Below, in pieces: positions 2,952 through 18,526 of a stretch of 20,842 nucleotides of DNA; the first letter of the stretch is position 1; the number at the start of each line of letters is the position of its first letter. Source of the DNA: Armatimonadota bacterium (GTDB lineage: Bacteria > Armatimonadota > Fimbriimonadia > Fimbriimonadales > GBS-DC); assembly GCA_037444405.1 (NCBI GenBank), contig JBBIML010000035.1, forward strand, positions 1-20,842, written 5' to 3'. Below the pieces are notes generated by a model, which was not told the origin of the DNA, did not search any database, and worked only from the letters and a program-made list of their open reading frames with translations. The position numbers were made by a program, and so were the translations under genes.

Positions 2952-4064
2952 ATGTTCAAGGGGCTACCGTTGACGCTGGGCGTCGAGGAGGAGTACCAGA
3001 TTGTGGACGCTGAGACGCGCGCCCTCGATTCGTATGTGTCCAAGATTTTGCCCGACGGGCGCGTGCGCCTGCAGGACCAGGTGAAAGAGGAGTTCATGCA
3101 GTCGCAGATCGAAGTGGGCAGTCAGGTCTGTGAGGATGTGCAGCAGGTGCGCGACGAGCTGGGTCGGCTGCGCGGCGCCCTTATTGAAATTGCCGAGTCG
3201 AACGGCAAGCATATCGTGGCAGCGGGCACACACCCCTTCTCCCGCTGGATCGATCAGACTATCACACCGAAGCTGCGCTACAAGGCGCTGGAAGAGAACA
3301 TGCAGGACATCGCCCGTCGCCTGCTCATTTTCGGCATGCATGTGCATGTGGGCATCGGCGATCTGGAGCTGACCATCGATATTTTCAATCAGGTGCGCTA
3401 TTTTTTGCCGCATCTGCTGGCGCTATCGGTCAGCTCGCCCTTCTGGGACGGTCGACGCACGGGGCTGATGTCCTATCGGAGCGTGGTGTTCGAAACCCTG
3501 CCTCGCACCGGGATTCCTGACGCCTTTCGCTCCTATGCCGACTACGACGCCTTCATGAACACGCTGGAGCGAGTGGGCGCGATCGATGACCGCACGAAGG
3601 TGTGGTGGGATGTGCGCCCGCATCCGCACTATAAAACGCTGGAGTTCCGCATCTGCGATGTTTGCACGCGCATCGAGGACGCGGTCTGCATCGTGGCGAT
3701 TATCCAGTCGCTGGTGGCGTTTCTGTACGATTTGCGGCGCAACAATCAGAGCTGGCGGCTCTACCATCGCGATCTGATTCGGGAGAACAAGTGGCGGGCG
3801 GTGCGGCACGGCGTGCGGGGTGAGCTGATCGATTTTGGCATCGGCAAGAGCGTGCCCTATGAGGAGTTGCTGGAGGAGCTGCTGGCGTTCATTCGCCCCT
3901 ATGCGGAGCAGCTGGGCTGCTGGGAGGAAGCGAAGCATGCGCGCCGCATCGTGAAAGAGGGCACCAGCGCGGACTGGCAACTGCGCGTCTATGACGAATC
4001 GGGTGGCGACCTGTGCGCTGTGGTCGACTGGCTGGTTGCGGCGACTCGTGAAGGGGTCAGCTAA
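2952..4064 (+). CDS. ybdK: Carboxylate-amine ligase, YbdK / glutamate-cysteine ligase family 2
   Basis: TLGVEEEYQIVD, AAGTHPFS, FGMHVHVG, LLALSVSSPFW, WWDVRPHP..TLEFRICD, ENKWRAVRHG. Confidence 0.93.
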   Translation: MFKGLPLTLGVEEEYQIVDAETRALDSYVSKILPDGRVRLQDQVKEEFMQSQIEVGSQVCEDVQQVRDELGRLRGALIEIAESNGKHIVAAGTHPFSRWIDQTITPKLRYKALEENMQDIARRLLIFGMHVHVGIGDLELTIDIFNQVRYFLPHLLALSVSSPFWDGRRTGLMSYRSVVFETLPRTGIPDAFRSYADYDAFMNTLERVGAIDDRTKVWWDVRPHPHYKTLEFRICDVCTRIEDAVCIVAIIQSLVAFLYDLRRNNQSWRLYHRDLIRENKWRAVRHGVRGELIDFGIGKSVPYEELLEELLAFIRPYAEQLGCWEEAKHARRIVKEGTSADWQLRVYDESGGDLCAVVDWLVAATREGVS

Positions 4065-5218
4065 AAGCCGTACTCCGCGGGGTTCACCGGGTCGCCGTTG
4101 ATGCGCACTTCGAAGTGGAGATGGGGTCCGGTAGAGTAGCCCGTGCTGCCGACGCGCGCGATAATCTGCCCCCGCTGCACGGTCTGCCCCTCGCTGACCA
4201 GGATCGCGGAGCAGTGCGCGTAGAGGGTGGCGACGCCCCCGCCATGATCGATAATCACGGTGTTGCCGTAGCCGCGTATGTAACGGGCTTCGACCACCAC
4301 GCCCGAATCGGCGGCGACAATCGGCGTGCCGTGCGGGGCGGAGAAGTCGATGCCGTTATGCATGCGGCGCACCTTGAAGATGGGGTGGACTCGCATGCCG
4401 TAGCGGGAGGAGACGGCGCCGTTCACAGGGCGGATGAATCGCCCTGACCATCGCCGGTCGGCGCGGGCGCGTCCGGCGGGGGTTTCCATCAGCGCGCGCA
4501 GGCGGCGGGCTATCGCCTGCGACTCGGCTTCCAGCTCGGCTAACTGCTGTTCATAGAGGGCGCGCTCGCTGGCAATCTGGCGCAGCGTCTCCCGTTTCTC
4601 CTGATGCGCCAGCTGCAACTCGCTCGCCTGCGCCCGCAGGTCGCGTTCCAGACCGGCTATTTCGGCGACCAGCGCGTCCATTCGCGCCTTCGCCTTCGCG
4701 ACCGCCTGCTGGTCGGCTCGCACCGCATCGAGCAGTGCGCGGTCGGTCTTCACAATCTGGCGCAGCACATAGCCCCGACTGGTCAGCTCGCGCATGCTGT
4801 TAGCGCCCAGCAGCACATTCAGATACGAGATGGTGCGGTGTTTATAGGCGGCGCGCAGGCGCTGGATGAGCAACGCCTGTCGTCGCTGGAGCCGCTCGGT
4901 GAGAATCGCCAGCCGTTTCGCCAGCTGGCGCTGTTCCTGACGGGCGCTGGCTAAGCGGTCGCGTGTGGCGCGCAGGCGGTGGGTGATGGCGTCGATCTGG
5001 GCGTCCAGCGTTGCCAGATCGCGGCGCACCCTGCGCTCCTCATGCTTTTTTTGCCGAATCTGCGAGCGCAACTGCCCAATCTGACCCTGCAGGCTCTTCA
5101 GCTCCTGCTGCAGCTTCTGCCTCTGCTGGCTTTTATCGGATTGTGGTGCAAGCGGGGCAAGCAGAAGCAGCCCTCCTGCGCAAATTAGCAACCACCATCC
5201 CTGTGCGCGCATCCACAT
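4061..5218 (-). CDS. Secreted coiled-coil plus M23 peptidoglycan DD-endopeptidase (EnvC/CwlO-like architecture)
   Basis: Signal peptide, long coiled coil, and intact Zn ligands HNGID (HxxxD) and [11 protein letters not shown] (HxH). Stop codon overlaps the ybdK stop. Confidence 0.92.
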
Positions 5219-5226
5219 CGTTCCCT

Positions 5227-5256
5227 ACTATACCCATTCGCGACCGTTGTCCGCAA
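5227..5256 (-). promoter_or_regulatory. Putative promoter of the M23 gene (near-leaderless)
   Basis: Minus strand TTGCGG (5256-5251), 18-nt spacer, TATAGT (5232-5227), 8 nt from ATG 5218. Confidence 0.55.
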
Positions 5257-5300
5257 TCCTGCCAGAAAATCGCGCAAATCGGTCAAAAAAGGTCGAACCG

Positions 5301-5331
5301 TTGCACTGTAGTGGTATGCATCGGGTATACT
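5301..5331 (+). promoter_or_regulatory. Putative promoter of the MerR-type gene (near-leaderless)
   Basis: TTGCAC (5301-5306), 19-nt spacer, TATACT (5326-5331), 9 nt before ATG 5341; no SD. Confidence 0.6.
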
Positions 5332-5340
5332 CTGGCTACT

Positions 5341-6036
5341 ATGAAACCCATCGACATGCTGAGGCAGTATCGGCAACAGGAGTACTTTACGATCGAGGAG
5401 CTGGTGGCTGTTGCCAATAGTCTGCTCGAGCAGTGGGCTCCTGTGCAACCGCGCTACAAGGTGGTGACCTTCCCGGATGTTCGGACCGTACGCTTCTATG
5501 CGGCGAACCGGTTGATTGACCCGCCCAGCAAGCGGATGGGCAATCGGGTGCTGTATGACTACCACCATCTGCTGCAGCTGGTCGCGCTTAAGGTGCTTCA
5601 GTCTCAATACATTCCGCTGCGTGCGGTGCAGCGGATGATTGAGAACAAGAGCGCGGAGGAGATTGAGGGGCTGATTGAGTCGGTGCTGGAGAGCCGCTCG
5701 GAGAAGGAGCTGGTGCAGCGGATGGGCGAGGCGGCGAAGGCGCTGGTGGCGGAGACCCCCGCGCCCGCTTATGCCGTCGCTGCGCCGCGCCCCACGGGAT
5801 CACCCTACCCCACGCCCGAAGAGTGGCATCGCTTCATGGTCACACCGTGGCTGGAGGTGGCGGTGCGTCCCGAAGCGGCGCGTACAGCCAGCGTCACCGA
5901 ACTCAATCGGGTCGCCGAGCTGGTGCGCCTGAGTATCCAGAAAGCGTACGAGGCGCAGGCGAAAGCCGAACAGGCACAGCAGCCCAAAGCGGAGGCAGCA
6001 CCGAAGCGGCGCGGGCGCAAGCGCCGCTCTGAATAG
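5341..6036 (+). CDS. MerR-family HTH transcriptional regulator (231 aa)
   Basis: FTIEEL...[17 protein letters not shown]...[16 protein letters not shown]...IPLRAVQ winged HTH. Start moved to ATG 5341 because the longer ORF overlaps the M23 gene. Confidence 0.85.
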
Positions 6037-6878: not shown

Positions 6879-8960
6879 ATGGAGCCACTGAAAGCAGCGA
6901 TAAGTGAGGGTTTCCGCCGTCTGGAGGCGCGGGATGGGTTCGAGGTGCGTCCCGTTCAGCATCAGATGGCGGAGTTTATTGCCGAATGCCTGCATGGGGG
7001 TCAGACCGCCTGCATCGAGGCGCCCACCGGCGTCGGCAAGAGCCTCGGCGCGCTCATTCCGCTGATTGCCTGGCTGCTGCAAACAGGCAAGCGGGTGGTG
7101 GTCTCCACCTACACCAATGTGCTGGCGGAGCAATACTGGCGCAAGGATTTGCCGCTCGCGCTGGAGCTGTTCGGGGAGGCGAGCAAACGGTTGCGCGGGC
7201 AACTGGTGATGGGGCGGTCCCGCTACGCCTGCATCGATCGAATTGCTGGGCGCGAGAACAACACCCTGGAGCCTGCATTACAGCGCTTCCTGAAGGAGTG
7301 GGTTCCGCTGGCGCAGGAGGGCACCGAGAGCGAGCTGATGCCCTTTTTGCGGCGCAAGGGCGTGCCCGAAAGCCTGACGCGCGATGTGTGGCGTCGGATT
7401 GCCACGCCGCCCGCCTGCCGCGCCCGCGCCTGCCAGCATTATGCGTCCTGCTTCTATTATCGCCAGCGCCGCGCCGCTGCGAACGCCCCGCTCATCATCA
7501 CCAATCACTCGGTGGTGCTGACCGACGCCCTGCTCAAGGCGAGTGGCGCGGAAGGACTGCTGGACGAGTACGACTATCTGCTGGTGGACGAGGCGCACGA
7601 TTTGCCGGAAGCCGCCCGCAGTGCGCTGGAGTTCGAACTCTCACCCGAAACGCTGGAGGAGATCGTGCGCAACGCCGCCAGCCTCAGCCACCAGATTGCG
7701 AACGCGCTGGAAGGCGAACAGCGCCCGGAGACGCTGCTGAACACCATCGCGGAGCTGGTGCAGGTGCTGGCGCAACGCTGCCACGCCGCCGTGATACCGC
7801 TCAGTGGCGCGGAGCTGCCGCCTGAAGGGCGTATCGTTGCCATCAACCCGCCTGAGCTGATGGACGACGAAGCGGTTCAGAAGGCGTCGCGTCCCGACTG
7901 GCTGCCCCTGATGCAGATGATAGTGGACAATCTCCAGCAGGCGCTGCGCCAGTTCTTCAGCGATTTGAAAAGCGAGCTGAACCACCATCGCCACCAGATG
8001 ACCAACGCGCAGTATGCCGCTGTGCGTGAGGCGTTCAATCAGTACGCGAGCTGGTTCCGCCAGCACTATCTGGGCTTGAACCTGCTGGTGAACCCTGTGG
8101 GCGGGGTGAGCTGGCTGGAGGGGTCGCCACTGGGCTGGCGGGCGTGCTATCAGCCGCTGGAGGTGGCGCCGTGGCTGGCGGAGCATCTGTGGAGCCGTCA
8201 GCCCGCGATCCTGATGAGCGCGACGCTCACCATCGACGGCTCCTTCGAGTTCTTTCGGCGGCAGGTGGGTCTGCCCGAAACGGTGCGCACGCTCCAGCTG
8301 CCCCCTGTATTCGACTACGCGCACCAGTGTGCGCTCTACCTGCCGCCGCGGGGCGCACTGCCGCCGCCACCACGCTCATCCCGTTCCCACGACGCGCCCG
8401 AATATTATCAGGCGGTGGCAGAGCAGCTGACAGCGATTCTGCAGGCGACGCGCGGGCGCGCGCTCGTGCTGTTCACCTCACGAGCAGAGATGGAAGCGGT
8501 GCGGGAGCGACTGCCGCCGCTGCCGAACCTGCGCCTGATGGTGCAGGGCGACAGCGCGACCGCCGACCTCTCCCAGCGGTTTCGGGAGGATACCGGGTCG
8601 GTGCTGTTCGGGCTGCGCTCCTTCTGGACAGGGTTTGACGCGCCCGGTGAGACACTCAGCTGTGTGGTGCTGGTGCGAATCCCGTTCGAGGTGCCGATCA
8701 GCCCGCCGCAGGTAGCACGCCATGCCCTGCTGCGCCTGCGGGGTGAAGACCCCTTCGAAAGCTGGACACTGCCGTTAGCCAAGCAACAGATTCGGCAGGG
8801 GTTCGGACGGCTCATTCGTCGCGCGGACGATAAGGGCGTCGTCTGCCTGCTGGATGCTCGCATCCGCACGCGCCCCTACGGCAAAACGATTCTTGCCAAC
8901 CTGCCCCCGAACATCCCCATCCACACCTCCATCGAAGCCGCCGCCCGACTGATTGCGTAA
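6879..8960 (+). CDS. dinG: ATP-dependent DNA helicase, DinG/YoaA family with Fe-S cluster
   Basis: Q-motif RPVQ, EAPTGVGKS, four Cys (YAC...CRARAC...SCFY), VDEAH, MSATL, FWTGFD, QGFGRLIR. Confidence 0.92.
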   Translation: MEPLKAAISEGFRRLEARDGFEVRPVQHQMAEFIAECLHGGQTACIEAPTGVGKSLGALIPLIAWLLQTGKRVVVSTYTNVLAEQYWRKDLPLALELFGEASKRLRGQLVMGRSRYACIDRIAGRENNTLEPALQRFLKEWVPLAQEGTESELMPFLRRKGVPESLTRDVWRRIATPPACRARACQHYASCFYYRQRRAAANAPLIITNHSVVLTDALLKASGAEGLLDEYDYLLVDEAHDLPEAARSALEFELSPETLEEIVRNAASLSHQIANALEGEQRPETLLNTIAELVQVLAQRCHAAVIPLSGAELPPEGRIVAINPPELMDDEAVQKASRPDWLPLMQMIVDNLQQALRQFFSDLKSELNHHRHQMTNAQYAAVREAFNQYASWFRQHYLGLNLLVNPVGGVSWLEGSPLGWRACYQPLEVAPWLAEHLWSRQPAILMSATLTIDGSFEFFRRQVGLPETVRTLQLPPVFDYAHQCALYLPPRGALPPPPRSSRSHDAPEYYQAVAEQLTAILQATRGRALVLFTSRAEMEAVRERLPPLPNLRLMVQGDSATADLSQRFREDTGSVLFGLRSFWTGFDAPGETLSCVVLVRIPFEVPISPPQVARHALLRLRGEDPFESWTLPLAKQQIRQGFGRLIRRADDKGVVCLLDARIRTRPYGKTILANLPPNIPIHTSIEAAARLIA

Positions 8961-8999: not shown

Positions 9000-9019
9000 A
9001 GGAGGTGCGCCCCCTTTTT
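9000..9019 (+). terminator. Weak candidate intrinsic terminator after dinG
   Basis: AGGAGG-TGCG-CCCCCT (one mismatch) followed by TTTT. Confidence 0.35.
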
Positions 9020-9089
9020 GCAAGTAGGGGTAGAGGATGTGGAGGAGTGGGGGGTGGTATCGATCTGTTGGCACATTTAGACGAACCCC

Positions 9090-9120
9090 TTGACAAAGGG
9101 GGATATGTGCATGGTATAAT
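9090..9120 (+). promoter_or_regulatory. Consensus sigma70 promoter of rpoBC
   Basis: TTGACA (9090-9095), 19-nt spacer ending in TGG (extended -10), TATAAT (9115-9120). Confidence 0.8.
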
Positions 9121-9157
9121 GACCTTTCGTGTAGACGTCCGACAGAGGAGGTCATAT

Positions 9158-12100
9158 ATGCGAATTATACGTCCAGCTAAGAAACGAATCAGCACCGTCC
9201 TTGAGCCGCCAGCACTGCTGGAAGTGCAGTTCAACTCTTACCGATGGTTTCTCGAGCAGGGACTGAAGGAGCTGTTCGAGATCTTTTCGCCTATCTACGA
9301 TTTGACGGAGACCTATTTTATCGAGTTCGGGGAGTATTGTCTGGGTGAGCCGAAATATGCGCTGGAGGAGTGCCGCGACCGCGAAATCACTTTCGAGGCG
9401 CCCCTGCGCGTCAAGGTGCGTTACGGCAAAAAGGATGGCGAGATTCAGGAAAGTGAAATCTATCTGGGCGACCTGCCCCTGATGACCGATAACGCCACCT
9501 TCATCGTCAACGGGCGCGAGCGCGTGGTCATCAACCAGCTCAACCGCACGCCCGGTGTCCACTTCCCGTCGCCCTATCTGTCCAGCACGGGGCGCGAGAT
9601 GATGGCGCGTGCCCTGCAAGAGGTCTATCTGGTGCAGATTATCCCTGCTGAGGGTCCCTGGATCGATGGGGGCAGCGACCCGCACGATGTGGTGCGTGTG
9701 CGCGTGCATCAGTCGAAGCAGCTGCCCTTCACGCAGATTATCAAGGCGTTAGCTGCCTTCCCGGAGGCGCAGGTGCCGACCCGATTGCCGCTGCAACGCG
9801 CCGTTGGCTGGCGACTGCTTGAACCCGTGCGGGAAGGGCGCAAAACGGTGCTGGAAGCGGGCACGATTGTTCAGCCTGCCATGCTCGCGAACCTTTCCGC
9901 CGATACCCTCCAGCAGAAGGTGCAGGTGGAACCGCCCTATCTGCCCGACGCTGAAGGACGCCCCAGCCTCACCAACGAGTCGTTTCTGCTGCTGTTTGGC
10001 ACGTTCGAAGAGGTTGCGGAACCCTCCATAGAGCAGGTGCGCGACCGCTATGTGGCGGAAGACATTCGCGACCGGCGCGGGCGCGTGATTGTGCCGAAGG
10101 GGACGCGCATCGACGCCGAACGCGCCCCTGCCGTCGCCCAGCATGCTATCCCACCGTTGCGGCTGATCCGATTGCCACGCCTTGTGCAGGCAACCCTTGA
10201 CGCCGATCCCACCACCGACTCGCGTGAAGCTCTGCTCGACTTCTATCGGCGTGTGCGCCCTGGCGACCCCGCCACCGAAGAGAATGTGCGCGCGGTGTTC
10301 TATAACCTGCTACTTGACCGCCGCCGCTACGACCTCGGCGCCGTCGGACGCTACCAGATTAACCGCAAGCTCGGACACGAAACGCCTCTGGAGGTGCGCC
10401 ACCTGACCGTGCCCGACCTGATTCTCACGCTGCAGTACCTGATTGAACTGGCGGATGAGAAACATCCCTACGATGATACAGATCACCTTGCCAACAAGCG
10501 GGTGCGCTCCGTCGGCGAGCAGTTGCAGGCGCATTTGCGAACCGCCTTTTTGCGCATGGAGAAGATTGCCCGCGAGAAGATGACTGCTGCCGAAGATGTG
10601 CATCAGCTGCTGCCCAACATGGTGCTGAGTGTGAAGCCTGTTTCCACTGCCCTCAAAAGCTTCTTCGCCCAGAACCCGCTCAGCACTTTTATGGATCAGA
10701 CCAACCCGCTTTCGGAGGTTGCCAACAAGCGGCGGCTCTCGGTGCTGGGTCCGGGCGGTCTCAGCCGTCAGAGTGTGCCGCCGCAGGTGCGTAACATCTT
10801 CCCCAGCCATTACGGACGGCTCTGCCCCGTCGAAACGCCCGAAGGTCAGAACATCGGGCTGGTCAATCAGCTGACACTGTATGCCCGTGTGGACGAGTAC
10901 GGCTTCATTCGCTCGCCCTACCGTATCGTGCGCGACGGGCGCGTTACCGACGAGGTGGTCTATCTCGCCGCCGATGAAGAGATGACCGCCTATATCGCCC
11001 CTGCCGACACGCCCGTGCTGCCCGACGGCACACTCGCGAGCGAACTCGTGCAGGTGCGCTACGGCGACGAGTATCCCACTATCCCTCGCGAGCGCGTCCA
11101 GTATATGGATGTCAGCCCCTCGCAGGTGTTTTCGGTCTCTGCCAGCATGATCCCGTTTCTGGAGCATGACGACGCGGGACGCGCCCTGATGGGCGCCAAT
11201 ATGCAGCGTCAGGCGGTGCCCCTTGTGGAGCCGGAGACCGCCTATGTGCATACGGGTGTGGAGCGCGCGGTGGCACTGAGTGCGCCCAGCGTGATTCGCG
11301 CCCGCCGCGCGGGACGAGTCCGCTATGTGTCCGCTGAGGAGATTCGCGTGGAAACCAGCGAGGGCGAGCTCGACATTTATCACCTCACCCACCTCCAGGA
11401 AAGCAATAAAGGCACCGCTTTCAGCTACCGACCCGCTGTCAAACTGGGGCAGCGCGTGCGGGAAGGCGATGTGCTAGCTAACGGCGCCGCCACCCAGCAC
11501 GGTGAACTCGCGCTCGGACGCAATGTGCTGGTCGCCTTCATGCCCTGGAACGGCTATAACTACGAAGATGCCATGCTGGTCTCGCAGGCGCTGCTCCACC
11601 GCGAAACCTACACCAGCGTCCACCTCGAAACCCACCAGACCGATGCCGTGGACACCAAGCTCGGCACCGAGGAAATCACCAGCGACATTCCGAATGTGAG
11701 CGAGGAAGCCCGCCGCCAGTTAGACGAGAACGGCATCATTCGCATCGGGGCGGAGGTGCGCGCGGAGGATATTCTGGTGGGCAAGGTCGCGCCGAAGCCA
11801 ACCACGGAGGGCAGCACGGAGCAGCGCCTGGTACGCATCATCTTCGGCTCGCAGGCAGAAGAGATGCGTGATGTCTCGTTGCGTTTGCCCCACGGTGAGC
11901 GAGGCGTGGTCGTGCAGGTGCTCCAGTTCGCCCGCTACCGATACCAGTGCCAGCGCTGTAATGCGCTCTTCTATCGCGCCAAACCGCTCGAAACACGCAG
12001 CTGCCCCCGCTGCCGCGGTACCCTCGAAACCCTGCCCGAAGACGAACTCCCGCCCGGCGTCAACCATCGCGTGCGCGTCACCGTCGCGACGAAGCGTCTG

Positions 12101-13213
12101 CTCACCGAAGGCGACAAAATGGCAGGGCGACACGGCAACAAGGGCGTCATCTCCCGCATCCAGCCCGTCGAAGATATGCCCTTCCTGATGGACGGCACGC
12201 CCGTCGATGTCGTTCTTAACCCGCTCGGCGTGCCATCACGGATGAATGTGGGGCAGATTATGGAGCTCCATCTCGGCTTTGCGGCGCACCAGCTGGGCAT
12301 CCGTTATCAGATCCCCGTCTTTCAGGGCGCCACCGTTGAGGAGATTCAGGCGGAGCTTGCGATTGTTGCCGACCGCCTGCGGCTGCGAACGCTTCTGGCT
12401 CTACTCACTGACGAACTCGGACTCACCTTGAACCTGCCGCCCAACGCCACCTTTGACGAAGCCATCGAGCAGCTGGGCGAGATTCTGCACGGGCTCGACG
12501 CCCAGCGGCTCGCCGCCATCGCCCGGCGATTGGGCATTCCTGGATTGACGGCACCCTCCAGCGAGCCTGCACGCGCCCGCCGTCGCAAACAGACAGGCAC
12601 CCCCGAAGCCGCACCGCAGCCATCCATGCCCGAACTGATCCAGACCCTTCTGGACACCATCCGCGAACGCGCCATCCAGCGCACAGGCTTCGACCCCACC
12701 ACTGGTAAGGCGCTGCTGCGCGACGGCAAGAGCGGTGAGACCTTCCAGAACCCCGTCGCCATCGGCTACCTCTACCTGCTCAAGCTGGAGCATCTCGCCG
12801 AAGAGAAAATCCATGCCCGCTCCATCGGACCCTACTCGCTGGTGACGCAGCAGCCGCTGGGCGGCAAAGCGCAGTTTGGTGGGCAGCGGCTCGGCGAGAT
12901 GGAGGTCTGGGCGCTCGAAGCCTATGGCGCCGCCCACACCCTCCAGGAGATGCTCACCATCAAATCGGACGATGTGATGGGGCGCATCCGCGCCTACGAG
13001 GCGATCGTCAAAGGCGCACCCGTCATCCAGCCCTCGGTGCCTGAATCGTTCAAAATCCTCGTTAATGAGCTGCGCGCCCTCGCGCTCCGCGTCCAGATCG
13101 TCGACCCCAGAGATCAAGCCCACAACTTCCGAAGCCTCGAGGAACTCGAAACGCTCGGCACCGAAGAGGAGACCAGACCCACTCTCACCATGCTCCATCC
13201 TGAAAACGAATAG
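9158..13213 (+). CDS. rpoB: DNA-directed RNA polymerase subunit beta (1351 aa, divergent)
   Basis: FIVNGRERV, FMDQTNPLSE, HYGRLCPVETPEG, RALMGANMQRQA, GYNYED, GDKMAGRHGNKG, NPLGVPSRMN, GGQRLGEME. GAGGAGG SD precedes ATG 9158. Confidence 0.98.
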   Translation: MRIIRPAKKRISTVLEPPALLEVQFNSYRWFLEQGLKELFEIFSPIYDLTETYFIEFGEYCLGEPKYALEECRDREITFEAPLRVKVRYGKKDGEIQESEIYLGDLPLMTDNATFIVNGRERVVINQLNRTPGVHFPSPYLSSTGREMMARALQEVYLVQIIPAEGPWIDGGSDPHDVVRVRVHQSKQLPFTQIIKALAAFPEAQVPTRLPLQRAVGWRLLEPVREGRKTVLEAGTIVQPAMLANLSADTLQQKVQVEPPYLPDAEGRPSLTNESFLLLFGTFEEVAEPSIEQVRDRYVAEDIRDRRGRVIVPKGTRIDAERAPAVAQHAIPPLRLIRLPRLVQATLDADPTTDSREALLDFYRRVRPGDPATEENVRAVFYNLLLDRRRYDLGAVGRYQINRKLGHETPLEVRHLTVPDLILTLQYLIELADEKHPYDDTDHLANKRVRSVGEQLQAHLRTAFLRMEKIAREKMTAAEDVHQLLPNMVLSVKPVSTALKSFFAQNPLSTFMDQTNPLSEVANKRRLSVLGPGGLSRQSVPPQVRNIFPSHYGRLCPVETPEGQNIGLVNQLTLYARVDEYGFIRSPYRIVRDGRVTDEVVYLAADEEMTAYIAPADTPVLPDGTLASELVQVRYGDEYPTIPRERVQYMDVSPSQVFSVSASMIPFLEHDDAGRALMGANMQRQAVPLVEPETAYVHTGVERAVALSAPSVIRARRAGRVRYVSAEEIRVETSEGELDIYHLTHLQESNKGTAFSYRPAVKLGQRVREGDVLANGAATQHGELALGRNVLVAFMPWNGYNYEDAMLVSQALLHRETYTSVHLETHQTDAVDTKLGTEEITSDIPNVSEEARRQLDENGIIRIGAEVRAEDILVGKVAPKPTTEGSTEQRLVRIIFGSQAEEMRDVSLRLPHGERGVVVQVLQFARYRYQCQRCNALFYRAKPLETRSCPRCRGTLETLPEDELPPGVNHRVRVTVATKRLLTEGDKMAGRHGNKGVISRIQPVEDMPFLMDGTPVDVVLNPLGVPSRMNVGQIMELHLGFAAHQLGIRYQIPVFQGATVEEIQAELAIVADRLRLRTLLALLTDELGLTLNLPPNATFDEAIEQLGEILHGLDAQRLAAIARRLGIPGLTAPSSEPARARRRKQTGTPEAAPQPSMPELIQTLLDTIRERAIQRTGFDPTTGKALLRDGKSGETFQNPVAIGYLYLLKLEHLAEEKIHARSIGPYSLVTQQPLGGKAQFGGQRLGEMEVWALEAYGAAHTLQEMLTIKSDDVMGRIRAYEAIVKGAPVIQPSVPESFKILVNELRALALRVQIVDPRDQAHNFRSLEELETLGTEEETRPTLTMLHPENE

Positions 13214-13254
13214 CTGACCACACTCCTGCCCATAGATGGAGGTGACGCAAATAG

Positions 13255-16200
13255 ATGGATATTGAACAGATTAAAGCGATCCGAATCGGGTTGGCGTCGC
13301 CAGACGACATTCGCAACTGGTCGTACGGCGAGGTCAAAAAGCCTGAAACCATCAACTACCGCACCTTCCGCCCAGAGCGGGACGGGCTCTTCTGTGAGCG
13401 CATCTTTGGTCCGACCCGCGACTGGGAATGCAGTTGCGGACGCTACAAGCGGGTCAAGAATAAGGGCGTCCGCTGTGAGCGCTGTGGCGTCGAGGTCACA
13501 CGCGCCCGGGTCCGACGCGAGCGCATGGGACATATCGAGCTCGCCGCGCCCGTCGTCCATATCTGGTACCTCAAAGGGCAACCCCCATCCCCGCTCGGAC
13601 TCCTGCTCGACATCTCGCCCCGCCAGCTTGAAAAGGTCATCTACTTCACCAACTATATCATCACCGAGATCGACCGCGCCGAGATCGAGCGCAATCTCGG
13701 CGACATTCGCCGCGTTGTTGAAGAGGAGAAAGCTCGTCTTGACGACGAACTTGCCCGCGTCTATCAGGAGCTCGACAACCGCCTCCAGCGCGAGCTGCAG
13801 GAGCATCGGGACGACTGGACCGACGCCCAGCGTGAGGAGCGCATCCGCTACTACAACCATCGCAAGGAGATGGAAGCCCGCGAACATCAGAACTGGTTGA
13901 GCGACCTCGAACGCGCCACGAATCACCTCGCCTCCCTCCAGAAATATCAGCTGCTGGACGAAACCACCTGGAGCGCGATTGAGCATCTGCTGATCCACTG
14001 TTCCCGCAGGCTCGGACGCGACCTGCGCGGGCTGGTACGCGCCGGGCAGGGCGCCGAGGCGGTTCGCGAACTGCTGCGCCAGCTCGACCTTGAAGCGCTC
14101 ACACGCCAGCTCCGCGAGGAAATCCAGCGCACGCAGGGCGCCCGCCGCGCTCGCATTGTCAAGCGGCTTGAAATTGTTGAAGCCTTCCGCCAGAGCCATG
14201 CCCGACCCGAATGGATGATCCTCGAAGCGGTGCCCGTGCTGCCGCCTGAGCTGCGCCCGATGGTCCAGCTCGATGGCGGGCGCTTCGCCACCAGCGACCT
14301 CAACGATCTTTACCGCCGCATCGTCAATCGCAACAACCGCCTGCGCAAGATTCTCGAAATCCGCGCACCCAAAACCATCCTGAACTCGGAGAAGCGCCTG
14401 CTGCAGGAAGCCGTCGACGCCCTCATCGACAACGCTCGCCGCACCAAACCTGTCGCCGGCTCCAACGGGCGACCTCTCAAGTCGCTCTCGGATCTGCTGC
14501 GCGGCAAGGAAGGGCGATTCCGCAAGAACCTGCTCGGCAAGCGCGTCGATTATTCAGGTCGCTCCGTGATTGTGGTCGGTCCTCACCTGCACCTACACCA
14601 GTGTGGTCTGCCCAAAGAGATGGCGCTGGAGCTGTTCAAGCCCTTCGTGATGCACCGCCTCATCCTTATGGGGCTGGCAAACAACATCAAAAGCGCCAAG
14701 CAAGCCGTCGATCGCCAGACGCCCGAAGTCTGGCAGGCGCTCGAGACGGTGATTCGGGAGCATCCGGTGCTGCTCAATCGCGCCCCGACCCTGCACCGAC
14801 TGGGCATCCAGGCGTTCGAACCTGTTCTCACCGAAGGCAAGGCGATCCAGCTCCATCCGCTGGTGTGCCATGCCTATAACGCCGACTTCGACGGCGACCA
14901 GATGGCGGTGCATGTGCCCCTCTCGTATCCTGCCCAGGCGGAGGCGCGACTGCTGATGCTCGCCATTCATAACCTCTTCAAGCCTGCCGACGGCTCGCCG
15001 ATTGTGTCGCCTCTGCAGGACATCGTGCTGGGCGCCTATTACCTCACGATGGACGATCCCTACGGTCAGCAGGAGCCGCGCTTCATCTTTGGCAGTGTGG
15101 AGGAGGCGCACCTGGCGTTCGAGGGCGGCGAGATTCGCATGCATGAACCCGTCCGCATCCGCCTCAGCACGGAGAACCTGATTCCGACTTCACCCGACGG
15201 CTCCGACTCGATTCCACCGCGCCTGGTGCTGACCACCTATGGGCGACTGCTGTTCTTTGAGCTGCTACCTGCCTCGTTCAAACGCCACCTGCTGGAGTCG
15301 CCCGATGAGGCTCTGCAAGCCTGTCTGAACCGCGTGTACACCAAGAAGGCGCTCTCGGAGCTGATCCGCGAGGTGTATCGCGTCTGCGGGCACGCCGAAA
15401 CGGTCACCTTCCTCGATCAGCTCAAGCAGGCAGGCTTCTACTGGGCAACGCGTGCGGGCATCACCTTCGCGCTGACCGATATGGCGATCCCGGAAGAGCG
15501 CGACGAAATCGTGCGCCGTGCGGAGGAGGAGGCGCGCCGCATCGACGAACTGTACGAGATGGGCGAACTCACCCTTGCCGAAAAACGCCAGCGACTGATC
15601 GACCTCTGGCAACGCGCCTATGAGCAGGTGACTCAAGCGATGCTGCGCTCCATCCCACGCGATAACCCGCTGTTCATCATCACCGATTCAGGCGCCCGCG
15701 GCTCCACCAAGCAGCTGGCGCAGCTGGTCGGGATGCGCGGGCTGATGAGTGGACTGCTCGACATCCGCACCGCATCCGAGCGCCTGATTGAGGAGCTGCC
15801 CGTGCGCCACAACTTCCGCGAGGGTCTCACCACCCTCGAATATTTCGTCTCTGGCTACGGCGCGCGGCGTGGGCTTGCCAGCACCGCGCTGCTGACCGCC
15901 AACGCGGGCTATCTCACCCGCCGTATGGTCGATGTCGCCCAGGATGTGATTGTGCGCATCCCCGACTGCCAGACCACCGAGGGCATTGTGGTGGCACGCA
16001 TCATTCGTGAGGGTGAGGAGATCGAACCGCTCTATCAGCGTATCCGCGGGCGCACCGCCCGACGCACGCTGCGCAACCCCTACACGGGCGAGACGCTGAT
16101 CGAAGAGAACCAGATTATCCCGGACGAGCTCGCTCGTACCATCGATCAGCTCGCGGCTCAGCTGGAGCGCTTCACCCAGACCCTGCGCGACCTCTCCGAA

Positions 16201-17994
16201 AAGGAGCCGGGCGAGCTCTTCACGCCCGATGATGCTCAGCCGCTGACCGATCCCGAGACGGGCGAGCCGCTGTTGGAACCGTTTGAGCCGATTGATGAGT
16301 CGCTGCTGACCCGGTTGCGCGCTCGCCGGGAAGAGCTGCGCCAGCTCTGGTATCGCGCGGGCTTTGAATGGGTTGAACATGATTGGGTTGGCGTGCCCAT
16401 CCGTTCACCGCTGACCTGCGCGTCCCGACATGGACTCTGCGCCGCCTGCTACGGTCTCGATATGGGCACTTTGCGCCCTGTTGAACTGGGCACTGCCGTC
16501 GGCATCATCGCCGCCCAATCGATCGGCGAGCCGGGCACCCAGCTCACTATGCGCGTGTTCCACACGGGCGGCGTCGCAGGCGCTGGCGAGCAGATTGCGG
16601 GCTTCCGAGTCGGCGGCGCAACCCTGCAGGCGGCTGCCGCGCTCGGCGAGCTTGAAGAGCGCGGCGTAACCGAACGCATCAGCGACCTGCGCTCCGACCA
16701 GCGCCGCGTGCTGTATCGCGTCGCCCAGCGACTGCTTGGTAAGCCTGTCCAACCAGAACCCATCGAACCCGCTGAAACAGCCGAAACCGAGACTGAAGAA
16801 AAGGTCCAGCGCAAGGTGCGCGAGTGGGTGCGCAAGCTCGCCAAACTGATGGAGAGCCAGAACACGGGCATCAACCGCGTGGAGGAGCTGTTCGAAGCCC
16901 GCAAGCCCAAAGGCGAAGCCATCACCGTCGACTACGAGGGCGAGGTGGTCGCCATCGAGCGCAGCATCGGGCGCTGGGTCGTGCTGCGGGCAAACCTGCC
17001 CGTCGGTGAGCAGCTCATCGGCAAGGTCAGCCTGCACACCGTCGTCAGTCCCATAACGGGCGAAACCCTTCTGCGCGAGATGGAGGAAATCCGCTCCACC
17101 CACCTCAACCGCCTGATGGAGCATGGTGTGGAGCAGGTGGAGGTACTGGACGCTGTGCTGGTGGGCGTCTCGGGCACGCTGGAGGTCAAGGTGGGCGACC
17201 GCGTGCTGCCCGGCGATCGCCTGACTCCGGGACCGCTGAACCCGCATGACCTGTTGCGCCTGCGCGGCGTGCGCGGCGTGCAGGAGTACCTCCTGCGCGA
17301 GATTCAGGCGGTCTATAAGGCGCAGGGCGTCGACATCGATGACAAACATATCGAGGTTATTCTGCGCCAGATGCTGCGCAAGCGGCGCATCATCGACCCG
17401 GGCGACACCCTCTTCCTGCCCGCGCAGATTGTGGATCGGTTCGTGTTCGAGGATGAGAACGCGCGGGTGATGCGCGAGGGCGGTCGACCCGCCACCGCCG
17501 AATGGGTGCTGCTGGGCACTTCGGAGGCGGCGCAGCAGACCGAATCGTTCCTGTCGGCTGCCTCGTTCCAGCGCACCGTAAAGGCGCTCACCGATGCCGC
17601 TGTGCGTGGCAAGCTGGACGAGCTGGTCGGGCTGAAGGAGAACGTGATTATCGGGCGGCTCATTCCGGCAGGCACGGGCTACTCCCGGCCCGAGTTCCGG
17701 GCGGAGTTCACCCGCCCCACCCGCGCCGCCGTGATGGAAGCGGAGGCGCCGCCCACCACCGAGCCGAAACAGCCTACTCTGCGCGACCTCGAACGGCTGA
17801 TAGGCGAGCCGTCGGCAACCGAAACTGCCACCCCTGCCCCACCCGACACAACCAGCCTGGCAGACCTGTCTGAGCGGGCTCCCATAACGGAACAGCCCGA
17901 TCAGTCGGGGCTGGTAGAAGAAACCCAGCCAGCCGCTGAATCCGAAACGAAGCCGAAGCGCCGTCGCCGCAAGCAGGCAGACGCTGAGAGTTGA
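13255..17994 (+). CDS. rpoC: DNA-directed RNA polymerase subunit beta' (1579 aa, divergent)
   Basis: N-terminal Zn site (CSC...CERC), [36 protein letters not shown], second Zn site, [35 protein letters not shown]. Confidence 0.98.
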
Positions 17995-17997
17995 ATC

Positions 17998-18028
17998 AAA
18001 ACGGGGGGCGGGTGTCAAACCCGCCCCC
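17998..18028 (-). terminator. Hairpin between convergent rpoC and cytochrome genes; intrinsic terminator, possibly bidirectional
   Basis: GGGGGCGGGT-GTCAA-ACCCGCCCCC, a 10-bp stem at 18004-18028, followed by GTTTT on the minus strand. Confidence 0.7.
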
Positions 18029-18034
18029 ATCACC

Positions 18035-18526
18035 CTACGGGTTCCAGCGACTGAACACCCGATCGCGGTCTTTCACCTGGTCGTGGCAGCCCTGACACTG
18101 ACCCACAGGGTCGGTCACGATGGGCTTGCCCGACGCATCCCACGCCTGCCAACCCCAGCCGCCCGATCGCGCATAACGGCGACTGTCTTTGACCATCAGC
18201 GCGGTGACCTTCTTCTTCCCCGCGACATACATGCCGTTCTCGTCTTTCGCCTCGTACAGCACGAAGACTATCTGGCTGCCGTTGGGGAACTGCTTCGCGT
18301 TTTTGCGATAGGCTTCCGCCGCAATCGGGTTCGCGTAGATATGATGCACGCCACCAAACGCGCCAAACAGCGGGTGCTTGTCGCTGTAGATGACACCCGT
18401 GGTAATATGCGTCCAGTTGCGCCAGCCTGCAGGCAGCCGCTGAGGAGTCGGCGGCTTGCTCTGACCCGCTATGGCGACCATACTCAACAACGCCAGTAAG
18501 CCCGCTCCAAGCAGAAAAGCTCGCAT
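18035..18526 (-). CDS. Cytochrome P460 family / cytochrome c'-beta monoheme protein (163 aa)
   Basis: Signal peptide, GWRNWTHI, HHIYANP, FPNGSQIV, LMVKDS, GGWGW and C-terminal CQGCH...DRVF. GGAGGTG SD supports ATG 18526. Confidence 0.88.
   Translation of the reverse strand: MRAFLLGAGLLALLSMVAIAGQSKPPTPQRLPAGWRNWTHITTGVIYSDKHPLFGAFGGVHHIYANPIAAEAYRKNAKQFPNGSQIVFVLYEAKDENGMYVAGKKKVTALMVKDSRRYARSGGWGWQAWDASGKPIVTDPVGQCQGCHDQVKDRDRVFSRWNP

Follow-up and report, generated by a model that had tools for sequence, protein, structure and literature searches.

Contig JBBIML010000035.1 of an Armatimonadota bacterium (assembly GCA_037444405.1) carries the genes of the RNA polymerase (RNAP) beta and beta' subunits, rpoB (9158..13213, + strand, 1351 amino acids) and rpoC (13255..17994, + strand, 1579 amino acids), and the question raised by this locus is whether the pair encodes the housekeeping enzyme of its lineage or a second, specialised polymerase. 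Both readings had been offered by the original prediction, made from the DNA alone, which described the pair as stand-alone and strongly divergent. The window analysed here is the entire contig, C35, of 20,842 bp, in a genome of 2.68 Mb and 40 contigs that is 98.9% complete. With a probability of about 0.92, the window contains the sole, and essential, housekeeping rpoB-rpoC operon of its genome, detached as in most of the phylum and bearing three superimposed layers of lineage change. The polymerase is moderately and coherently remodelled, and it is a single housekeeping enzyme.

The notion of a lineage-wide remodelled housekeeping RNAP is therefore supported but needs to be split into layers belonging to the phylum, the order and a clade of four genera. 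The first, phylum-wide layer comprises a zinc-ribbon-like insert in beta, a helical trigger-loop insert at the site of sequence insertion 3 (SI3) of Gram-negative bacteria, and lysine or arginine for glutamate in the motif SAASFQE. The second, order-wide layer consists of H526N and Q513T in the rifampicin pocket. The third is that of the clade, with bridge-helix changes at 776, 777, 781, 785 and 789, a 6-residue insertion in the F-loop, beta N677G, an altered fork loop 2 and trigger-loop T934V; it was accompanied by an RNAP-specific rise in rate of about 1.5-fold, and purifying selection then kept the outcome fixed. Of the three layers, that of the clade alone is of some interest, and several other lineages of the phylum deviate to a comparable degree.

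Identity, copy number and descent of rpoB and rpoC

RpoB matches six Pfam families of the Rpb2 series (1, 2, 3, 45, 6 and 7) over the curated cut-offs, with E values from 3.5e-14 to 7.9e-115, and RpoC matches Rpb1 domains 1 to 5, all over the curated cut-offs, with hits to solved beta' chains at E = 0. The catalytic motifs and both beta' zinc sites had been described as intact, and their positions bear this out. The beta subunit possesses the active-site motifs GDKMAGRHGNKG (beta 985-996; 12110..12145, +) and (N/Y)xED, the latter as YNYEDA. The beta' subunit possesses the magnesium-binding catalytic motif NADFDGD (beta' 542-548; 14878..14898, +), the four cysteines of the N-terminal zinc site Zn1 (beta' 59-77; 13429..13485, +) and those of the second site Zn2 (Cys 905, 1055, 1062 and 1065; 15964..16449, +). 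Between the Zn2 ligands lies an insert, beta' 969-1044, which is longest in the family of the window. In comparison with canonical bacterial rpoBC (E. coli, and the solved Thermus, Bacillus and Mycobacterium RNAPs), the locus is alike in domains, motifs, rpoB-rpoC order and single copy. It differs in its lack of linkage to rplKAJL or rpsL-rpsG-fusA, in its lineage-specific inserts, and in the clade's replacement of residues fixed in all other sampled sequences, for example beta' D785, T776 and T934.

The start of rpoB was placed at ATG 9158, because a GGAGG ribosome-binding site (9147..9151, +) lies 6 nt ahead of it and the proteins of relatives share this start, at MR(I/V)I. A longer frame that starts with GTG at 9005 was rejected on these grounds.

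Pfam searches of the whole genome confined Rpb2_6 and Rpb1_2 to this contig, where rpoB and rpoC are their sole matches, and no second canonical copy was found. A blastn search with positions 9000-18100 against the whole genome returned no second copy of any part of this region, and an origin of the low-complexity inserts of rpoBC from mobile repeats of the genome was rejected on this ground. Matches to rpoC are present in all 30 relatives compared, from genus to order level, and the places listed represent one open reading frame (ORF) or the pieces of one gene split at contig ends. The same holds for G012, a one-contig genome of the same family. In a broader sample of the phylum, scored for presence and not for copy number, 150 of 151 genomes match this beta' core, including all 140 of high quality. 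Beta' frames of 1300-2040 amino acids are usual in the phylum. Two phylum-level relatives have very long subunit frames, L132 with a beta' of 2039 amino acids and L138 with a beta of 1924 and a beta' of 1827 amino acids, which points to further large insertions in these lineages.

The tree of RNAP alone places the clade as sister to the two other genera of its family and inside its order, in agreement with the taxonomy labels, and the guanine-cytosine (GC) content and composition of rpoBC are no different from those of its flanks. The pair is thus both the sole core of its genome and vertically descended, as befits a housekeeping polymerase.

Residue changes specific to the clade

The clade was represented by nine loci, namely the window, three congeners and five loci of genera g3 and g5, and was compared with 132 other sequences; E. 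coli numbering follows an E. coli record included in the alignment. The bridge helix, F-loop and TVKAL of the clade also occur in RpoC loci of g4, and the clade therefore spans genera g1, g3, g4 and g5. The canonical version persists in two further genera of the family, g2 and g6. Columns were considered near-invariant when the same residue occurs in at least 90% of the non-clade phylum sequences and at least 95% of the 80 outgroup sequences. Altogether 31 of 697 such columns are changed in all nine clade members. They include 21 of 312 in beta (122, 152, 445, 478, 510, 543, 549, 550, 551, 567, 572, 664, 711-713, 816, 862, 899, 904, 1270 and 1318) and 10 of 385 in beta' (17, 776, 781, 785, 800, 934, 1249, 1309, 1314 and 1329). 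Active-centre modules hold 16 changed columns among 132, against 15 among 565 outside them (odds ratio 5.1, p 3e-5), a p-value that is optimistic because the module boundaries were chosen post hoc.

The bridge helix (15841..15945, +) carries T776G, H777Y, K781R, D785S, K789L and L800M, and the bridge-helix segment compared is identical in all 12 loci of g1, g3, g4 and g5. Aspartate occupies position 785 in every one of the 121 other sequences having a residue there, and residue 789 is lysine or arginine outside the clade and leucine within it. The F-loop (15730..15804, +) contains a clade-specific insertion of six residues; the stretch corresponding to E. coli beta' 743-760 is 25 residues long in 9/9 clade loci, as against 19 residues in 53 other loci of the phylum and 18 residues in 69 outgroups. 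At the base of the trigger loop (16549..16902, +), which includes a 95-residue insert at beta' 1110-1204, T934V is likewise specific to the clade.

In beta, the fork loop 2 region (10766..10801, +) reads RQSVPPQVRNIF where relatives have RQSAKLEVRDVH, and all nine clade members have replacements at E. coli residues 543, 549, 550 and 551. Q510P in the rifampicin pocket is also clade-specific. The two variant motifs to which attention had been drawn are genuine. HDDAGRALMG (beta 670-679; 11165..11194, +) has glycine in place of E. coli N677, a state found in 9/9 clade loci and 0/132 other sequences. The motif with FQRTVKAL (beta' 1434-1445; 17554..17589, +) combines a substitution class that is phylum-wide, glutamate to lysine or arginine, with the clade-specific TVKAL, present in 9/9 clade loci and in none of the other sequences.

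Normally fixed residues (T776, K781, D785 and T934) are replaced in the clade, and the bridge helix and trigger loop are present and alignable. A catalytically competent polymerase would be expected from the ratio of nonsynonymous to synonymous substitution rates (dN/dS) of 0.07-0.11 and from the single copy. The changes of the clade may compensate each other, with ordinary function kept and with kinetics or inhibitor sensitivity possibly altered. Degen et al. (2014, PMC4029172), in the text available, assign beta' 775-785 to a single structural module, the 'bridge-helix cap', along with the F-loop and beta 675/677, and give beta' residue 785 as conserved from bacteria to human. The layer of the clade amounts to a coherent rebuilding of this cap and of the fork loop. 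It is conceivable, with the odds clearly against it, that this rebuilding acts as a unit, on the phylum-specific background of the beta zinc-ribbon-like insert and the helical trigger-loop hairpin, and alters the mechanics of nucleotide addition and translocation or confers intrinsic insensitivity to inhibitors binding at the cap, the fork loop or the rifampicin pocket. If true, nature would here have tested active-centre parts that are regarded as immutable. A swap of the module between enzymes would be feasible, because relatives of g2 and g6 keep the canonical version. A connection of the remodelled active centre with loss of Gre factors was considered and rejected: genes with GreA/GreB domains occur in 31 of 31 genomes (two matches in 26, one in 5), and the clade does not differ from the rest.

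Order-wide changes in the rifampicin pocket

Cluster I of the rifampicin pocket (beta 502-530; 10661..10747, +) has asparagine at the position of E. coli H526 and threonine at that of Q513. H526N together with Q513T or Q513S is found in 22/22 loci of the order and in 0/39 loci of the rest of the phylum. Both positions are hot-spots of rifampicin resistance. Some actinomycetes possess a duplicated, rifampicin-resistant rpoB paralog with asparagine at the H526 position in the second copy; here, unlike there, the asparagine is in the sole copy and is fixed across the order. H526N figures among the 'disputed' rpoB mutations in the literature, and according to one abstract such mutations can cause low-level resistance. 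The H526N/Q513T state suggests that rifamycin sensitivity may be reduced across the whole order, which could matter for rifampicin-based enrichment or cultivation of this uncultured environmental group.

As an alternative to neutral compensated drift, the bridge helix, fork loop 2 and rifampicin pocket might have been altered in adaptation to natural inhibitors of the habitat, similar to rifamycin, streptolydigin or salinamide, to which the housekeeping enzyme would thereby be insensitive. This is unlikely, although the changed positions are concentrated in active-centre modules and the order-wide changes fall on the hot-spots, H526N with its 'disputed' class included. As far as the available text of PMC4029172 goes, beta N677 is also a site at which substitutions make E. 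coli highly resistant to salinamide, a drug contacted by beta' 781 and 785. However, most salinamide sites (beta' 775, 779, 780, 782 and 783) are unchanged, and beta 677 is the only resistance site in that text which coincides with a clade change. The cap mutants described there are single laboratory substitutions, whereas the clade has many natural changes together with a 6-residue insertion. Furthermore, the substitutions of the clade may differ from those that confer resistance, and compensatory drift following the F-loop insertion would equally give concerted local change.

Phylum-wide inserts and motifs

The residue following SAASFQ is lysine or arginine in 37 of 38 phylum loci with the motif, including all loci of the order, and glutamate in 65/65 outgroups with the motif. 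A second phylum-wide feature is the zinc-ribbon-like CxxC...CxxC insert in beta (beta 931-952; 11948..12013, +), at the site of sequence insertion 2 (SI2) of E. coli, which was recognised by alignment, tally and model. It is about 30 residues long, with the pattern CxxC-N16-CxxC, and its cysteines have been lost in some families. The four-cysteine pattern is found in 9/9 loci of the clade, 2/2 of the rest of the family, 4/11 of the rest of the order, 26/39 of the rest of the phylum and 0/80 outgroups. An AlphaFold model built from a 31-row alignment predicts beta-strands for the insert, with a predicted local distance difference test (pLDDT) of 87-92, and the insert may bind metal. No description of a zinc ribbon in bacterial beta is apparent among the literature matches listed, which does not prove that there is none.

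The trigger-loop insert (beta' 1110-1204; 16582-16866, +) is also phylum-wide and variable in length. The stretch aligned to E. coli 936-1137, flanks included, has 96-103 residues in the clade and 62-261 in the rest of the phylum. The longest such stretch, with 261 residues, belongs to L103. In the model (pLDDT 58-88), helices are predicted at 1123-1134, 1138-1161 and 1177-1198, the tip of the insert is acidic and disordered, and strands are absent. No Pfam domain covers it, and the beta-rich fold of SI3 was not recovered in this helical prediction of moderate confidence. The site of the insert in the alignment, between HxGG(V/A)A and G(L/I)xRV, is also where SI3 interrupts the trigger loop in E. 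coli and cyanobacteria (Qayyum et al. 2024, PMC10895346). SI3 is formed by sandwich-barrel-hybrid (HABAS) domains, whereas two long helices and a disordered acidic tip are predicted for the insert of the window.

Other inserts add to this architecture. The C-terminal part of beta contains a helical insert (beta 1068-1180; 12359..12697, +), in which helices predicted at pLDDT 84-96 are joined by a disordered linker rich in basic residues and proline (pLDDT 54-57). A Foldseek search of the beta-fragment model against the PDB returned RNAP beta chains only, with template modelling scores of 0.25-0.33, and is uninformative on the inserts. The N-terminal (clamp) region of beta' bears a charged insert of approximate boundaries (residues ~138-320; 13666..14214, +) whose length varies throughout the phylum; residues 138-229 have no counterpart in most outgroups. 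Finally, beta' ends in a low-complexity acidic and proline-rich tail with a terminal basic patch (17680..17994, +), and this tail varies in length among relatives.

A remodelled polymerase is a known trait of the phylum, because Alvarez-Carreno et al. (2024, 'BEAN and HABAS', PMC11515920) record, in the text available, the beta of Armatimonadetes as a distinctive, insertion-rich 'type 4*' and beta' as insertion-bearing. The words 'zinc' and 'helical' do not occur in the main text of that paper, whose supplementary tables might list the beta and trigger-loop inserts; residue changes at the level of the clade lie beyond its scope. The zinc-ribbon-like insert of beta and the helical trigger-loop insert extend the catalogue of lineage-specific RNAP insertions.

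Evolutionary rates and selection

Rates were compared on one fixed topology, obtained from RNAP and 11 ribosomal proteins of the S10/spc cluster of the same genomes, with branch lengths re-estimated for each partition. Trees were built with FastTree (LG+gamma) on MAFFT FFT-NS-2 alignments. Root-to-tip distances in the clade are 1.07-1.12 for beta plus beta' and 0.83-0.89 for the ribosomal proteins. The ratio of the two is thus 1.22-1.32 in the clade, and its median in the other lineages is 0.86. The stem of the clade measures 0.241 for beta plus beta' and 0.124 for the 11 ribosomal proteins. In median root-to-tip distance the clade exceeds the others by a factor of 1.89 in beta, 1.73 in beta' and 1.64 in alpha (three clade members), against factors of 1.26 in the 11 ribosomal proteins and 1.27 in nine further proteins of the same cluster (eight ribosomal proteins and SecY). 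The branch is thus long genome-wide, with an RNAP-specific excess of about 1.3-1.5-fold in all three core subunits, mostly on the clade stem. The dN/dS values of 0.067-0.107 in eight pairwise comparisons represent strong purifying selection today. A long branch under purifying selection, proposed as support for remodelling, was accordingly observed.

Part of the divergence is shared with the rest of the genome, and it is unlikely, to the same degree as inhibitor adaptation, that the whole of it is the genome-wide effect of a fast-evolving lineage with a small genome and has nothing specific to RNAP. The entire order is long-branched in ribosomal proteins, members of the order reaching root-to-tip distances of 0.8-1.07 in the 11 ribosomal proteins, and the clade exceeds the others by a factor of 1.26-1.27 in the two ribosomal-cluster sets. 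After this control, however, the RNAP subunits are still higher (1.64-1.89), and for the clade stem the RNAP length is double the ribosomal one.

Several observations weigh against giving the remodelling of this clade an exceptional place. Four other lineages of the phylum match or approach its ratio of RNAP to ribosomal rates (1.36, 1.27, 1.22 and 1.19). The window has 31 deviations among 633 near-invariant positions, which ranks it 6th-7th of 50 lineages; the same control gives 50, 50, 37, 33 and 32 deviations for other lineages, with one tie at 31 and a median of about 8. All the trees rest on fast MAFFT alignments, and the rate of alpha comes from three clade members only. The enrichment in active-centre modules is overstated by its p-value, as the modules were delimited after the list of changes had been seen. 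The outgroup is biased towards Proteobacteria, and 'near-invariant' is relative to this sample, because 76 of the 80 outgroup sequences are so labelled, several of them by genus or family alone. Over the columns shared with E. coli, beta is 45.7% identical to its counterpart, against a median of 49.6% for other phylum members, and beta' 51.3%, against 52.5%. The description 'strongly divergent', with identities only slightly under the medians, was an overstatement, and within its phylum the polymerase belongs to the upper tail without being an outlier. Nor is it an entirely ordinary single-copy enzyme: its copy number, its context and one of the substitutions are ordinary, but its branch length and the other substitutions are not.

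Replacement of the native genes by rpoBC of a distant lineage would account for the long stem branch and the detached position and sits easily with neighbours that vary within the genus, but it is very improbable, because the RNAP-only tree puts the clade within its own family and order; in addition, the clade shares the zinc ribbon of beta and the trigger-loop insert with its phylum and H526N/Q513T with its order, the GC content is like that of the flanks, and alpha, whose gene lies apart in the ribosomal cluster, shows acceleration as well. A second, specialised core beside a canonical one, as in the actinomycetes with duplicated rpoB, had only two points in its favour, the detached position and conserved motifs that give an impression of divergence, and is refuted for this assembly, because the genome holds no other Rpb2_6 or Rpb1_2 match, with the gene tree following the taxonomy labels and the rpoC matches of the 30 relatives, the one-contig genome included, each falling within one gene.

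Genomic context of rpoBC

The housekeeping operon is detached from its canonical rplKAJL-rpoBC-(rpsL) neighbourhood, and in this genome rplJ-rplL and rpsL are located on other contigs, C8 and C10. The context was surveyed at 60 loci, 20 from the order of the window and 40 from other families of the phylum. The genes rplJL lie directly upstream of rpoB in 9/60 and rpsL directly downstream of rpoC in 10/60; both are present in 3/60 and neither in 44/60, the last group including all 20 loci of the order. Stand-alone rpoBC is therefore the common state of the phylum. The detachment that had been pointed out is true of the window, but it is no oddity. For annotation, this means an ordinary housekeeping rpoBC, with an odd context and several unusual residues that are normal for the phylum and no sign of a second polymerase.

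The expected neighbours, dinG and a cytochrome gene, were confirmed by Pfam. A DinG-like helicase gene lies upstream (6879-8960, +); downstream are a convergent cytochrome P460 gene (18035-18541, -) and then an S8 subtilase gene. The DinG neighbour is found at none of the 60 phylum loci, the P460 and S8 neighbours recur in the closest species only, and neighbours vary even within the genus. A GC-rich hairpin (18004..18028) separates the convergent rpoC and P460 genes, with a T-run on the minus strand only.

In an order-level relative, G158, two large same-strand ORFs of 747 and 729 amino acids are situated between rpoB and rpoC (L117:5225-9883). They have no Pfam match and show weak similarity to each other (23% over 269 amino acids, E 2e-5). 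In the other relatives, rpoB and rpoC are adjacent.

Promoter and non-coding signals

A promoter-like element (9090..9120, +), identified by direct reading, precedes rpoBC. It consists of TTGACA at 9090-9095, a spacer of 19 nt and TGgTATAAT at 9112-9120; the -35 and the extended -10 are both perfect, and the untranslated region after the -10 is about 30 nt long. A scan of the plus strand for promoters, which accepted spacers of 16-18 nt, reported no element, and it omits this one because of its 19-nt spacer. All 10 family loci compared have an element of this layout at the corresponding place ahead of rpoB (L099-L101, L104-L108, L102 and L103), the -35 being TTGACA, TTGACT or TTGAAT and the -10 being TATAAT, TATACT or TATAGT. 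Among four loci from the rest of the order, L113 has a looser version (TTGACT ... TACACT), and L109, L111 and L116 have no such element. Conservation across the family loci favours a real promoter, and transcription of rpoBC probably starts from this sigma-70-type element of its own, which has an extended -10. The consensus promoter claimed for the operon holds in its hexamers, but its spacing lies outside the 16-18 nt range. Rfam and tRNA scans of the window gave no matches, and hence there is no known leader RNA upstream of rpoB.

Other genes of the window and the genome

Three further frames of the window were noted. A 676-amino-acid frame (3-2030, -) with no Pfam match runs off the contig end. 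An M23 peptidase gene with a PcsB-like coiled coil (4061-5218, -) is overlapped by the start of a divergent frame of 341 amino acids (5011-6036, +), in which a MerR-type helix-turn-helix is found only in the middle; the true start of this MerR gene is probably further downstream within the frame. Elsewhere in the genome, an ORF of 702 amino acids (contig C31:24816-26924, -) lies within the spc ribosomal-protein operon, between rplE and rpsN, and its N-terminus resembles, as judged by eye, a translational GTPase of the elongation factor G type. The ribosomal cluster is also interrupted after rplE in several relatives.

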